IMG/VR virus record: IMGVR_UViG_3300008262_000001
DNA: 64,000 bases
Direction: 5' to 3' (one strand)
Source of the DNA: a virus
Taxonomy: Duplodnaviria; Caudoviricetes
Shown: one piece after another, positions 39,457 through 62,741 of the stretch
How the letters are laid out: each line of letters begins with the position of its first letter
Numbering within the stretch: the stretch's first letter is position 1
Translations under genes and position numbers: made by a program
Notes under the pieces: generated by a model
Told to the model about the DNA's origin: nothing
Database searches by the model: none
What the model saw: the letters and a program-made list of their open reading frames with translations, nothing else

Positions 39457-40176
39457 GTGATGAAAGCGCTCAAGCCATATTGGTTTTTAGAAAGCCCAGT
39501 AGATACTGAACACAAGTTTTATGTTCTAATGGGATTCCTTTCGAAGATCAAGAAAAATTTTGATAAACCTGGTTTTGAAAAAGAATTTAAAGAACTCTTG
39601 CTTCTTAAAAAGGATTTGGAAAATTTTGATGTTAATACAGAATTTTCTCAGAAAACTATGGCAAAAATGCCAGATAAGGAGAGAGACTTGTTTTATACAA
39701 TACTTGACAATAATCTTGATAAGATTGAAGAAATAGATTCTATAGTTAAAAACTCAATTAAGACAATAGAAACGTTCCTTGAAGAAAACCAGTCAATTTA
39801 TGACAAGTATAATTCTCTAGTACAAATACAAACGCATTGTACTAGATACAATCTTTGGGACCAAGGATTCTTAATAGTTAGGAAACAGGGAGATGAGTTC
39901 ATGAAGGTCTTTACCTGGTTTTTCTCTGTTATTAAAATAGATCAAAAAGAAAACATAGCATTACTTATGACAGAAATGCTTGAACCTCCAATTGAAACAA
40001 CAACAGAAATGGAGGTCATAAAGAAATTTCTAAAAAAGAATATTAAGGATTTTTCAGCAATGCATGATTGTGTACTAGTTGCTGAGGTGTCACCAATCAC
40101 AGATATTGAAATTGGCGCGGAAATAGGCAAAGAAAAATCTATAGATATTATCCTCAAAAACTACAAGAACGATTAG
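39457..40176 (+). CDS. Hypothetical protein
   Basis: 239-aa ORF (GTG 39457 or ATG 39460) with CATATATA upstream. Confidence 0.7.
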   Translation: MMKALKPYWFLESPVDTEHKFYVLMGFLSKIKKNFDKPGFEKEFKELLLLKKDLENFDVNTEFSQKTMAKMPDKERDLFYTILDNNLDKIEEIDSIVKNSIKTIETFLEENQSIYDKYNSLVQIQTHCTRYNLWDQGFLIVRKQGDEFMKVFTWFFSVIKIDQKENIALLMTEMLEPPIETTTEMEVIKKFLKKNIKDFSAMHDCVLVAEVSPITDIEIGAEIGKEKSIDIILKNYKND

Positions 40177-40727
40177 GCATTCTTTCCCCTAATTAAAGCC
40201 TTGAGTTCGTCACTTTCTTCTTGAGAAAATTCATATCTGTCAAAAGGAAATCTTCCAACTTCGTACATTTCTACTTTTTCGATTCCATTACGATCTTCCG
40301 TGACAACTTCTATTTTATTACCCTTTCTGTTGATATAGAAATCACCACTTGATCCATCTCTGAATGTTTTATTTCTTATAAATAATAAAGCTCCACCTGG
40401 CATTGTTAATTCGGGTTCGTATTCTCCAGCATCAATAATTCTTTCTATCTCGGGAACTATTTCAGAAATTAGTGCAAATGGCTTAGAAGCTAAATCTTCT
40501 AGATTCGAAATTCCAATATTTCTTGAAATAAATGATAAAATTTCTCTTTTGAGATGTGGTTTCTCTACAAAAATAGACTTTAGATCGTCTACAAAACTTT
40601 TGCTGCTATATCCATATCTCGGATCATTCGACGAGTGTCTGAACGGTAACTCAAAAGTTTGGTCTCTATTTCCGGCAGCAGAACTCTCAAACAAACTGAA
40701 TTGACTAAACGTTTTTATCTTTCTCAT
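40173..40727 (-). CDS. Putative internal head protein (capsid-targeting-like N-terminus)
   Basis: Starts MRKIKTFSQFSLFE. Confidence 0.6.
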   Translation of the reverse strand: MRKIKTFSQFSLFESSAAGNRDQTFELPFRHSSNDPRYGYSSKSFVDDLKSIFVEKPHLKREILSFISRNIGISNLEDLASKPFALISEIVPEIERIIDAGEYEPELTMPGGALLFIRNKTFRDGSSGDFYINRKGNKIEVVTEDRNGIEKVEMYEVGRFPFDRYEFSQEESDELKALIRGKNA

Positions 40728-41134
40728 ATTGGCCTTGATAGAGTTATTTTGATCCTGTCTTTGAAAGGCATTGATTTAGTTTTCGTAACATCCTTTCCTA
40801 CTTTAATCAATTTATCTTTAGAATAAACATCTTGCTTCAAACCTTGTCCTTGTGATAGCTGTGATGGTTTACACTCAATGTATGCTTCTTCCCCTTTTGG
40901 GATAATATAACTTGAATTCTTATTTACAATTAAAATGTCGCCAGGTAATGCTTTCATCTTCGTCCATACTGGTTCTAAAACCTCAACACCTAAGAAGCTT
41001 CCCCCAGGTTTATATTCTTCAACACATTCTATTTGGAATTCCTCTTTGACTTCGAAAAAACAACCATCTGCATCCAAACCATACTTGGTAGGATTCGTTT
41101 TAATAAATTGATCTATTTTTTCAATTCTCCCCAT
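40724..41134 (-). CDS. Hypothetical protein
   Basis: 136 aa; GATATATA 6 nt upstream of the ATG. Confidence 0.6.
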   Translation of the reverse strand: MGRIEKIDQFIKTNPTKYGLDADGCFFEVKEEFQIECVEEYKPGGSFLGVEVLEPVWTKMKALPGDILIVNKNSSYIIPKGEEAYIECKPSQLSQGQGLKQDVYSKDKLIKVGKDVTKTKSMPFKDRIKITLSRPI

Positions 41135-41140
41135 TTCTCT

Positions 41141-41148
41141 TATATATC
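41141..41148 (-). promoter_or_regulatory. GATATATA (leftward member of a divergent pair)
   Basis: 6 nt upstream of ATG 41134. Confidence 0.65.
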
Positions 41149-41167
41149 GGATTTCGTCTATTAAAAT

Positions 41168-60251: not shown

Positions 60252-60271
60252 AATTGCAAATATAAGAAAAA

Positions 60272-61027
60272 TTACACTGGTTCTGGTAGATTGTTATCGA
60301 AAGCGACATCAACCATTAAGTTGTAGGGGTTTAAGTCTTTAATGCTTACTGTTTCTTCCTTTGTAGAAGGGCAATAGAAAAGTATAGGATTAGATCTTTC
60401 AGCCCAAGTTGAAGCTGCTAAAAAAAAGCTTTCCTTATATGTTAATCCTCCTTGGTTTGTCCTATGTGAAGAGGTTCTAAATACTATAGGGATTTTCTTT
60501 TCAATATAAGTAACAGACAAAAGATCCTTAACTGAATATAGACTAGGTTTATCGTCATTTATAAGGCAAATTGCTTTCTGTGTTTTCCAAGGAAGTGTAT
60601 CAAAAAATTTACAGAAATCCTGCATACTTTTTCTTCTGTTACCCTTTGCCCCTCCTATATGACAAATCAAAGGAATATCGAATCTTCCTCCGTCAATCTC
60701 TTCGATCAAACTACCAATCTTAAGTATTTCTTGTTTAGCATTCTTTTTAGAATTTGGGTCAGTAGAGATTATATGATTTTTGGTTTTAAGATAGATTGCT
60801 ATTCTAATATCTAAGTCGTCCAGATAGTAAAACAGTCTCTCTTTTTCTGATTGACCTACCTCCAAGTCTGACTCAAGATCCTTTTCTGAAATTTCCACTA
60901 TAAACAGTTTGTATCCCAATGGCAGAGAATTTTTGATTTGATCACATATTCTTCTAATCAATGAGTTTTCTTTAACCAAACCTCCGTCGGGTAGTTTGAT
61001 TACAATCCCGTTTCTAATTTTTTCCAT
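60272..61027 (-). CDS. uvsE: UV-damage endonuclease (UvsE/UvdE)-like protein, apparently catalytically degenerate
   Basis: HIGGAKG, INDDKPSLYSVKDL, IPIVF and LAASTW align with UvsE, but the metal ligands are substituted. Confidence 0.65.
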   Translation of the reverse strand: MEKIRNGIVIKLPDGGLVKENSLIRRICDQIKNSLPLGYKLFIVEISEKDLESDLEVGQSEKERLFYYLDDLDIRIAIYLKTKNHIISTDPNSKKNAKQEILKIGSLIEEIDGGRFDIPLICHIGGAKGNRRKSMQDFCKFFDTLPWKTQKAICLINDDKPSLYSVKDLLSVTYIEKKIPIVFRTSSHRTNQGGLTYKESFFLAASTWAERSNPILFYCPSTKEETVSIKDLNPYNLMVDVAFDNNLPEPV

Positions 61028-61059
61028 ATAAGTTTTATTACTTTAACTTTAGAAGTTTC

Positions 61060-61860
61060 TTACAAAGCATCAAAAGCTTCCAGGTCCATTTTTGGCCATG
61101 ACTCCAATTGGCTTATTGGTGATAGATTAGCCACCTTCACTCCTTTCTTTTCTAAGTTATCTCTTAACACACCAAATTCACCATCGATGTTTCTGATATG
61201 CTTAGAAAGCTTATGAGTTCCGCTTTTTGTAAAAAAATGATCATTGGTAAAATCAACACCAATCATACCTATTTTAGATGCTCCCAACTGGTAAGCTACA
61301 ATAGCAGCCATATATGGAGAGTTCATTGTGTGATCAACAAATTCGAACTGGTCTAATCTTGCTTGGTTCCTTTCTCCGACTTTTAATTTTGCTAAGTTTC
61401 CAGATCTTGTTATAGGCCCAGGATTATCTAGATGTGAAAATATTACAGGGCTTAAAGAATCTCGAACAAAATCCCATCTTCCTCTCATAAATGTTCTGAA
61501 ATCATTTACAACAACTAAAAAATCTGGTGTAAGTATTCTTTCGATATCATTCACCCCTACTATGTAGTATTTACTTAGATCTGTGAAGTAGTTAACTGAA
61601 GATCCACATCCAACTATAATAAAAGTTTTATCTTTGTATTTTCCAATGTAATCTGGATAAAGATTCTTTCCGTGATATTCGCTTTTTATCGTAGTTGTAA
61701 TTCTTGATACTGGTAATTCCATACCTGGTTCGCTATTATTAACCCTGAAATTTCGGGTTAAATTTGGTTTGGTTTCTGATTTTATATCTTGTCCAAAATT
61801 TGGATTCTTAATTCTTTCTCTACTAACTCTAAGAAGACTTCTTTTTCTTTCTATCGACAT
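61060..61860 (-). CDS. Maf/MptE-like (DUF115-type) nucleotide-sugar transferase-fold protein
   Basis: FIIVGCGSSV, IVGVND, AYQLGASKIGMIGVDF. Confidence 0.65.
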   Translation of the reverse strand: MSIERKRSLLRVSRERIKNPNFGQDIKSETKPNLTRNFRVNNSEPGMELPVSRITTTIKSEYHGKNLYPDYIGKYKDKTFIIVGCGSSVNYFTDLSKYYIVGVNDIERILTPDFLVVVNDFRTFMRGRWDFVRDSLSPVIFSHLDNPGPITRSGNLAKLKVGERNQARLDQFEFVDHTMNSPYMAAIVAYQLGASKIGMIGVDFTNDHFFTKSGTHKLSKHIRNIDGEFGVLRDNLEKKGVKVANLSPISQLESWPKMDLEAFDAL

Positions 61861-62741
61861 TAGGATATAAAAGTATTAATTATAGATTGTGCTTGTTGTA
61901 AATCTCTGTCTCGGCACTGGCCATATGATTCACCTGCCAAAGAATGAAAATGTTGAACAAGAATTTTCTTAGCTTCTAGTTCATTCTTCATTTCTAAAAA
62001 TATAACGCCCAAAAGACATTTAATTTGATCGTTTATATCACTTAAATCTTTGTGATGTTTCATAAAGCAATAAGCTTCAGCTGCCTTCAAAGTATCTTTT
62101 AGTGTTACAGGATTTAGTTTAGAGTCGCAATAAATTTCGTGCGTGTTTGGATTGCAAGTTACCCCAGCAAATATCCTTTCGCCAGGTACAGGATTTTGTG
62201 ACAAAATAATCCTCCATCCCGTTCCAAAAGGACCTTCTATATGATCTGGATTATCAATAGGTATCAAAAGATCTTTATCTGATTCACCTTCCAATGAACC
62301 CCACACAACGTTACCTCCGTCATATTTGAGATTTTGTTGCATCTTTTCTCTGGAGCTAATAGCTACACCCATTAAGTTTTTAGTGTTCCCTCTGTCCTCT
62401 GTAAACTCTATTGATCCTGGAATTAGTGAGTAAATTTTTTTGTCTCTCAATCCTTGGATTTTGATCCTGTACGATTTACCATCCTGTTGTTTGAAAGTCT
62501 CTATAACCTCACCAGTAATTTTCTTACTTTTTCCTTCCACTTTTCCTTTTACCAAATCACCAACTTGAAACACAGAATCTTTAACTAATATACTTGGATC
62601 TGGGTCTCTCCCAACCGATATTGAAAGATCCTGAAATGGTTTGTAGTCAACTTTAAAAACTCCATTTGAGCTGTTAAAGCCATCTCCACTTATAGTCTGT
62701 GAAAAATATTCATTTAGAGATTTGATTTTGGTAGTCTTCAT
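61860..62741 (-). CDS. Hypothetical protein with tag-like N-terminus
   Basis: Starts MKTTKIKSLNEYF; SH3/KOW-like segment FQVGDLVKGK. Confidence 0.6.
   Translation of the reverse strand: MKTTKIKSLNEYFSQTISGDGFNSSNGVFKVDYKPFQDLSISVGRDPDPSILVKDSVFQVGDLVKGKVEGKSKKITGEVIETFKQQDGKSYRIKIQGLRDKKIYSLIPGSIEFTEDRGNTKNLMGVAISSREKMQQNLKYDGGNVVWGSLEGESDKDLLIPIDNPDHIEGPFGTGWRIILSQNPVPGERIFAGVTCNPNTHEIYCDSKLNPVTLKDTLKAAEAYCFMKHHKDLSDINDQIKCLLGVIFLEMKNELEAKKILVQHFHSLAGESYGQCRDRDLQQAQSIINTFIS

Follow-up and report, generated by a model that had tools for sequence, protein, structure and literature searches.

Short amphipathic N-terminal tags on unrelated proteins suggest an enlarged system of T4-type prohead loading and processing in a huge, uncultured phage of fresh water

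The window analyzed here, a 64,000-nucleotide stretch of a virus of the Caudoviricetes (IMG/VR record IMGVR_UViG_3300008262_000001), contains eight unrelated open reading frames (ORFs), between 40.2 and 58.4 kb, that start with an amphipathic peptide of 11–17 residues of the form aliphatic-x-x-aromatic-x-x-aromatic-[ILV]-x-Glu, with a small residue next. Working throughout from sequence only, we consider that these N-terminal tags probably belong to a much enlarged T4-type system of prohead loading and processing, carried by a huge, uncultured phage of fresh water whose capsid protein is gp23-like. A preliminary description of the same DNA had compared the tags with the signals that direct the internal proteins of T4 into its head, and the analogy holds at each point that can be tested on sequence, namely the spacing of the tag, the family of the protease, the propeptide of the gp23-like capsid protein and the type of cut site.

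In the scheme we propose, the amphipathic N-terminal tag would mark unrelated late proteins for the scaffold core of the assembling head. After closure of the shell, a gp21-like protease would cut after the Glu of the tags; the same protease would cut the capsid propeptide at SLNE/SAG (a slash within a motif marks the cut, predicted in the case of this phage) and each of 14 scaffold units, yielding 14-residue peptides able to leave the head. The mature proteins remaining inside would ultimately be ejected along with the DNA.

Tags were regarded as strong where the Glu falls at residue 12–17, P3 is I, L or V (the Glu being P1 and the residue after the cut P1') and aromatic residues stand upstream. 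The ORFs concerned, including the less certain ones, are as follows.

40173–40727, minus strand: p184, function unassigned; tag at residues 1–14, MRKIKTFSQFSLFE/SSAAG.
41195–41902, plus strand: p235; tag at residues 1–12, MVIRKYSQFISE/S, spaced as in T4 YQEFIAE.
42181–42630, plus strand: p149, hyper-acidic (56% Asp plus Glu), with 24-nt repeats; weak tag-like start.
46321–48393, minus strand: p690; tag at residues 1–12, MALSNNFSRLIE/S, then a highly charged Arg/Glu stretch.
48412–48930, minus strand: p172; class-B tag at residues 1–13, ending YNPVFE/SL.
48962–49243, minus strand: p93, a small basic protein; tag at residues 1–12, MKITSFKKFIYE/Q.
49230–50093, minus strand: p287, charged; tag at residues 1–13, MKLKRLESFSINE/G.
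50090–51070, minus strand: p326, just downstream of the capsid gene; probable tag, a longer leader ending LLE/N at residue 18.
55020–57680, minus strand: p886; class-B tag at residues 1–17, ending YKGINPIYE/SM.
57673–58428, minus strand: p251, a pol-beta-type nucleotidyltransferase; tag at residues 1–13, M or L followed by NNILNFFAWVSE/N; TTG start.
61860–62741, minus strand: p293; probable tag, MKTTKIKSLNE/YF.

Aligned on the Glu, the clearest tags read aromatic-x-x-aromatic-[IV]-x-E (YSQFISE in p235, FKKFIYE in p93 and FFAWVSE in p251), and those of p184, p287 and p690 retain the aliphatic P3 and the Glu with one aromatic shifted by one place. A second class, here called class B, ends N-P-[VI]-[FY]-E/S and is found on p172 and p886; the NP[VL]FE core of p172 is present in all 10 of its listed orthologues, and resembles both the p886 tag and a capsid motif, W-S-P-I-I-E. 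Once the tags are removed, the mature parts of ten tagged proteins have no significant similarity to one another. The tag-like N-termini quoted in the preliminary description are all present at the ORFs to which it had assigned them, and its list stands for the eight strong cases and, as probable ones, for p326 and the weaker p293; the ORFs at 41918 and 42181, which it had also counted, are weak.

The IPII and IPIII proteins of the T4 record both start MKTYQEFIAE/A, with the same spacing as the tags. This capsid-targeting sequence (CTS), which is also carried by IPI, Alt and the gp24 propeptide and is removed by gp21, is, like the peptide described here, a short N-terminal element on unrelated proteins, and its core Y-x-x-F-I-x-E/A has a spacing identical to that of Y-S-Q-F-I-S-E/S, F-K-K-F-I-Y-E/Q and F-F-A-W-V-S-E/N. 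The two phages further have in common a protease of the gp21 family, a capsid protein of the gp23 family with a propeptide, a cut after Glu (predicted here), and a diverse cargo that includes anti-defence candidates. The internal proteins that T-even phages carry are diverse, have the CTS alone in common and serve, on injection, to block the host's defences (PMC3012670, PMC12373910), with about 10 families across the group (PMC12373910). Unlike in T4, P2 is mostly Asn in this phage, there is a second class of tag, the protease is fused to the scaffold, and the scaffold consists of 14 tag-like units in array. In scale, too, the two differ, with approximately 25–40 tagged proteins per genome here versus the three internal proteins and a few other processed head proteins of T4.

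The genes for the proposed shell, protease and scaffold lie together on the minus strand.

51164–52936, minus strand: major capsid protein, gp23-like (Pfam Gp23, 1.5e-39; matches to T4 gp23 chains in PDB).
52948–54993, minus strand: prohead protease fused to a scaffold-like extension; residues ~17–225 gp21/S77-like.
53560–54147, minus strand: 14 tandem 14-residue units with the consensus NISYSEYLAE/NLDK, within the scaffold part of the protease ORF.

The capsid propeptide comprises residues 1–43 and ends HSLNE/SAGAY, the predicted site at E43 being invariant in ~50 relatives, which agrees with the SLNE/SAG site first pointed out in the preliminary description. In these relatives the first 50 residues of the protein are nearly invariant and are followed by a variable Gly/Pro-rich stretch. 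The segment NEIYETWSPIIESKTG resembles, by eye, ELLNKWKPLLEGEG of T4 gp23. The propeptide of T4 gp23 has 65 residues (PMC5694885), and as such the T4 cut falls after the Glu of SFLTE/AE in the T4 sequence. The commonest ending of the tags, [LIV]-N-E and then S, G, Q or N, agrees with the predicted capsid cut site. In the protease ORF, which lies upstream of the capsid gene, the first ~160 residues match Pfam S77 (4.2e-10) and S80 (1.6e-8), and the protein also matches the solved T4 gp21 chain (PDB 5JBL). Its GELDHP and SISSRAAG align with GELNHP and GVSSRGLG of T4, motifs which we take to contain the catalytic His and Ser of gp21.

The link of the scaffold repeats to the tags is what we regard as the new point of this analysis. 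The units occupy residues 283–478 of the protease ORF and each reads aromatic-x-x-aromatic-[LI]-x-E; Tandem Repeats Finder reports a 42-nt period at 53663–53988, a regular expression finds 14 matches at an exact 14-residue spacing, and every full-length orthologue has 10–15 copies. A strict form of the 7-mer occurs 14 times in the scaffold, three times at residue 6–7 of tagged proteins and four times elsewhere in the proteome of the window (~19,900 residues), the last being the number predicted from composition. The scaffold unit, the tags and the T4 CTS agree in an aliphatic P10, an aromatic P7, a small polar P6, a charged P5, an aromatic P4, an aliphatic P3 and a Glu at P1. How the CTS of T4 finds the core is still called mysterious (PMC9958956). 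The T4 scaffold and core proteins gp22, gp67 and gp68 are cut at many [LIF]-x-E sites to small peptides, as we propose for the scaffold here, and T4 gp22 starts MLKEQLIAE/A; however, T4 encodes its scaffold in a gene of its own that lacks regular repeats, whereas here 14 near-identical units follow the protease in one ORF. Tenacibaculum phage PTm1 has a protease-scaffold ORF too (L096 10228–11922), with distinct aromatic repeats that end in a cut-type site, W-[IL]-K-x-D-[FY]-T-K-x-L-S-E/G, and cleavable scaffold repeats may thus be a wider habit of this phage group.

Agreement of the tag ending with the capsid cut site speaks to cleavage and not to targeting, and one could regard the peptide as a mere propeptide that the protease removes, for instance to keep a protein inactive until late, with no routing into the head. 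We think this improbable. An amphipathic aromatic face is conserved over 7–10 residues upstream of the cut, beyond the [LI]-x-E that is known to direct cleavage by gp21, and the same aromatic face is repeated 14 times in the scaffold. Furthermore, the equivalent peptide of T4 is sufficient for targeting, and a protease of the gp21 type is active only once the prohead shell is complete, so that its substrates must by then be inside the prohead (PMC9958956 for both).

Still less probable, in our estimation, is a shared leader that serves some other partner, be it a modifying enzyme of the kind known for ribosomally synthesized and post-translationally modified peptides, a chaperone, or a route to secretion or the membrane. 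The tag motif is bound up with the scaffold and the capsid cut site, and no radical S-adenosylmethionine gene (PF04055) was found in either of the two related genomes introduced below, G001 and the complete G003, with 14 of 14 control genomes positive. The tags are also amphipathic and bear charges, and they lack the hydrophobic core that a signal peptide has; on that ground a signal-peptide reading of them was rejected.

The capsid protein resembles those of the Lak megaphages and of a 462-kb uncultured phage (42–46% identity) and those of cultured Tenacibaculum and Flavobacterium phages (~30%), and IMG/VR contains at least 80 related contigs with capsid identities of 66–92%. The sequence is present in lake and freshwater metagenomes of several studies, and the relatives indicate that the host is probably a freshwater member of the Bacteroidota. 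Two relatives served for genome-wide counts: G001, a 248-kb contig that is 85% complete and has 341 ORFs, and G003, a complete 373-kb genome with terminal repeats.

The tag pattern is retained in orthologues from 10–45 loci per family, while the letters change by swaps among F, Y and W and among I, L, V and M. In the nucleotidyltransferase family, tags across ~45 loci include NFFAWVSE/N, KLESWIIE/Q, NFKDWSLNE/D, DFSRFVLNE/D and RYNEFISE/G, and the stretch between the Glu and the conserved domain is variable in length, which fits a tag plus a linker. Full-length p235 orthologues among 25 loci likewise keep the pattern, with a linker of variable length after it. The G001 orthologue of p184 starts MRRIYTFNEFDINE/SSAAG; orthologues of p690 occur in 12 loci, and those aligned at the start retain F-x-x-L-[LMIT]-E/[SDN]; most orthologues of p287 have [LIM]-[ND]-E/G and then [IVLF]-[LIF]-SS.

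Several counts place the tags at N-termini in excess. A position-specific scoring matrix built from six tag families and applied to the seventh, over 19,757 positions in the window's proteins, ranks the N-terminal site of the left-out family between 11 and 178 (p287 being rank 11), and the matrix from all seven families places p886 second, p184 10th and the capsid site 14th among the 19,757 positions, none of the three having been used in training. When an ungapped hidden Markov model of the tags was run on the first 25 residues of each ORF, with internal 25-residue tiles as the control, G001 yielded 29 N-termini at 4 bits or more versus 6.6 expected, and 16 versus 1.5 at 6 bits or more; the corresponding figures for G003 were 24 versus 10.2 at 4 bits or more and 4 versus 0.1 at 8 bits or more. 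The high scorers come mostly from families outside the training set. An unsupervised scan of 2,554 three-position patterns, in a reduced alphabet and over the first 21 residues of the G001 proteins, returned aliphatic-x-x-aromatic-x-x-aromatic as the most N-terminally enriched of all (50 instances, 4-fold, p = 6e-16). A loose regular-expression rule for tags was dropped as too permissive, since it gave 74 matches versus 35 expected. By eye, ~40 of the 341 ORFs of G001 are tagged, and genome-wide the tagged proteins probably number 25 to 40; the family is much larger and more dispersed than the preliminary description, with its ten or more proteins, could show from one window, in which eight cases are strong. 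Among 26 G001 tags anchored on hydrophobic-x-Glu, in which the Glu at P1 is present by construction, P3 is L, I or V in 23, while 16 have Asn at P2 and 24 have S, Q, N, G or A at P1'.

As starts rich in Lys and Asn are common in AT-rich phages, and the window is itself AT-rich (about 34% GC), the tags might be thought a chance or compositional effect, or else a nucleotide-level element at gene starts, but we give this reading next to no credence. Compared with internal windows of the same proteins, the N-termini show a large excess. In the same scan of two other Bacteroidota phages, PTm1 and Molly, the core pattern of the tags was absent from the eight most enriched, so genomes of this kind do not have it as a general property. 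Within the tags, the choice of synonymous codons for F, E, N, Y, K, I and L is that of the rest of the genome and the residues vary within chemical classes, and the codon usage places selection on the peptide and not on the DNA.

A nucleotide motif does accompany many of these genes. GATATATA occurs in 11 copies in the window, where 3.4 are expected; most of these closely precede a gene and share its orientation, and in G001 there are 56 copies, with 47 genes having one within 80 nt upstream. It precedes 12 of 29 tagged versus 35 of 312 untagged genes of G001 (p = 1e-4); by eye, ~29 of the 47 genes behind it start with a tag, the rest including the protease and large untagged proteins. This distribution fits a putative late promoter common to virion genes. 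The preliminary description had most tagged genes in units headed by GATATATA and clustered around the capsid and protease genes. The enrichment before tagged genes of G001 is in line with the former, and the clustering is seen in this window but not in the relatives, where the majority of tagged genes stand well away from the head module, in accessory clusters. The capsid-gene neighbourhood of LR756500, the closest database relative, has no tagged ORFs.

One exact copy of GATATATA lies inside the protease gene just past the catalytic domain (54309–54376, minus strand), and an in-frame Met229 (MDNNFVTAEELNE), a start that also ends L-N-E, follows 59 nt downstream. It is possible that the two yield a separate, scaffold-only product, in the manner of the herpesviruses with their nested protease and scaffold genes.

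Of the tagged proteins of the window, p251 bears out the earlier statement that they include an enzyme. Its pol-beta nucleotidyltransferase signature (GS...DLD) is conserved in 26 relatives, its AlphaFold2 model has a mean predicted local distance difference test score of 82 with residues 1–18 at low confidence and outside the fold, and Foldseek aligns it with nucleotidyltransferase clusters from residue 21. Placement in a subfamily failed, the matches to solved CdnE, ANT and MNT structures being weak. Homologues occur in T4-like cyanophages and in phages of the Lak and Maribacter kinds, with alignments that begin at ~residue 20, and those of a cyanophage (MNLESFLE/Q) and of Molly (MNLKTLVE/T) have short leaders that end in hydrophobic-x-Glu before the conserved domain. 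Almost all of ~45 orthologues of the gene begin with TTG or GTG (58426–58428 in the window; L002–L081), a conserved non-ATG start. The cultured Bacteroidota phage Maribacter phage Molly has a leader of its own, M..[IL]K[ST]L[IV]E/S, on at least eight ORFs, including the p251 homologue, and its S77 protease is fused to a scaffold (Molly_1 L118 5456–10518; whole genome L120–L126).

In p886, a 9-nt repeat at 55949–56057 encodes a Gly/Ala/Thr run, which is followed by a long Gly-zipper hydrophobic segment at residues ~590–700, and from these sequence features we regard the protein as a candidate membrane-inserting ejection protein. p184 has no match in Pfam or PHROG. In p293, residues 1–51 are conserved yet predicted to be disordered and precede an SH3-like domain and an alpha/beta domain; its fold has no convincing match, only weak SprT/M48-like and SH3/Tudor-like ones, and no HExxH is seen in the sequence. 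The tagged proteins of G001 include a T4 Rnl1-like RNA ligase, a CHAP/NlpC-P60 hydrolase, an OmpA-like protein, an AAA_5 (MoxR-type) ATPase and its DUF2201 neighbour, and a 256-residue protein (L090:12284–13054, plus strand; MKRIKDFKGFINE/Q) with a Tad3 domain, that of a type I Thoeris inhibitor (4.5e-21). The last, judged by its domain, is a candidate for a pre-packaged anti-defence protein. Anti-defence, cell-wall and RNA-repair functions are as expected of proteins that enter the cell with the DNA. As cargo, the strongest candidates within the window are p184, p235, p886 and the nucleotidyltransferase.

A different fate has to be weighed for the proteins encoded beside the capsid gene. p326, p287, p93, p172 and p690 have no family match in searches of the Pfam and PHROG type, and by analogy with gp67, gp68 and gp22 of T4 they may be transient parts of the core or scaffold rather than delivered cargo; p326, which has several internal sites of the LNE/G type, is a candidate core or scaffold protein. 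Extended to every tagged protein, this would mean that all are assembly-only parts, cut up and expelled, and that nothing is delivered to the host. T4 gp22, gp67 and gp68 are such transient parts (PMC5694885), and the tagged genes of the window, with their charged products of no matched family, do flank the capsid and protease genes. Against this, folded enzymes and the Tad3-domain protein carry tags with no evident role in assembly, internal sites of the cut type are few or absent in their mature parts, and most tagged genes of the relatives stand in accessory clusters far from the head genes. We therefore hold an assembly-only fate to be plausible for the capsid-adjacent proteins, unlikely for folded enzymes, and unlikely also as an account of the whole family.

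The enlarged T4-type system also invites comparison with the giant phages related to phiKZ (phiKZ, 201phi2-1, SPN3US), which have an S80 protease, a family that the protease of this phage matches as well. They too are huge phages in which many head proteins are cut after Glu, and their ejection proteins include enzymes and a membrane-active candidate, as proposed here. Their propeptides are mostly 79 to >250 residues long with the cut motif [SAG]-x-E (PMC5694885), unlike the tags of this phage, which at 11–17 residues fall short of such long propeptides and have an aliphatic P3 as in T4.

We would go further only tentatively, and with more doubt than belief, to a reading in which the scaffold is a 14-unit polymer of the targeting peptide and the tags are single-copy imitations of it, together with an injected effector kit of 25–40 proteins. 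The tags, as imitated scaffold units, would co-assemble with the scaffold lattice and be freed by the same cut after Glu, and the kit might include the Tad3-like anti-Thoeris protein, the RNA ligase, the cell-wall hydrolase, the MoxR ATPase and the nucleotidyltransferase.

A number of observations weigh against the enlarged T4-type system or parts of it. The clade has no cultured member and is known from sequence alone. Approximately 10% of all genes would encode head proteins, which is a high share; the heads of SPN3US contain ~50 proteins (PMC7411985). The mature tagged proteins of the window are mostly acidic to neutral, and as the internal proteins of T4 touch DNA via lysines (PMC3012670), those of the window may behave differently. 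Several of the cases first put forward are weak: the p293 tag, conserved in 46 loci, is without an upstream aromatic and has an aromatic P1'; ILSYKDFLK, earlier taken for the start of the ORF at 41918, is a helix at residues 11–19 with no Glu after it; p149 (42181) has no clear cut site; and the ORF at 41134 is a weak case. With respect to the scaffold, the tag matrix scores the units moderately (11 of 14 in the top 2% of positions), and the likeness of tag and scaffold does not clearly recur in other lineages, as the tags of Molly match just one linker segment of the Molly scaffold and in PTm1 the scaffold repeats differ and there is no clear family of tags. That tag and scaffold co-evolve, considered as a separate proposition, is unsupported in Molly or PTm1. 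A complex prediction for scaffold residues 276–480 with the first 45 residues of p235 gave a score of 0.00, with both chains poorly folded and no controls, and weighs neither for nor against the system.

The tagged genes fall within the head module, apart from p293, and the window is organized as follows.

1–22 kb: baseplate module.
40–58 kb: head module.
58–63 kb: small DNA-repair cluster.

The DNA-repair cluster (58474–63280) directly adjoins the head module and encodes a 3'-5' exonuclease, an Fpg/Nei-type glycosylase, a UvdE-like UV endonuclease and a UvrB/C-motif protein. Within the head module, the acidity of p149 is like that of the acidic tail of the T4 core protein gp67. Its gene adjoins a RimK-like ATP-grasp gene (42830–44314, plus strand; PHROG 'ribosomal protein S6 glutaminyl transferase', 6e-18), beyond which are an AsnB-like amidotransferase starting MCGI (44288–45709, minus strand) and a P-loop protein (45713–46279, minus strand). 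These neighbours of p149 (42181–46279) could provide chemistry for acidic or poly-Glu head peptides. Two small plus-strand ORFs of the window have no Pfam family match, bS21 included. Contigs from RNA libraries cover the capsid gene for the most part, with short stretches of the genes for the protease, p287 and p886, and are a weak sign of transcription, the uncovered parts being uninformative. We found no published description of tags in this phage clade, and a paper on bS21-carrying freshwater Bacteroidetes phages makes no mention of them.

If the tags work as they do in T4, sequence alone could yield a list of what the virions of a whole clade of uncultured huge phages carry, and as such a list would comprise proteins that must act at the first moment of infection, it would be a promising set in which to seek new counter-defence functions. 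A testable route by which cargo reaches the core is suggested by the 14 tag-like units of the scaffold, and the tag, with the matching capsid, scaffold and protease genes, is a possible tool for loading proteins into large capsids. Were the scaffold truly a polymer of the tag, this would explain in concrete terms how a CTS finds its way to the core, and were the effector kit real, approximately a tenth of the proteome of these phages could be read from sequence as an injected set.

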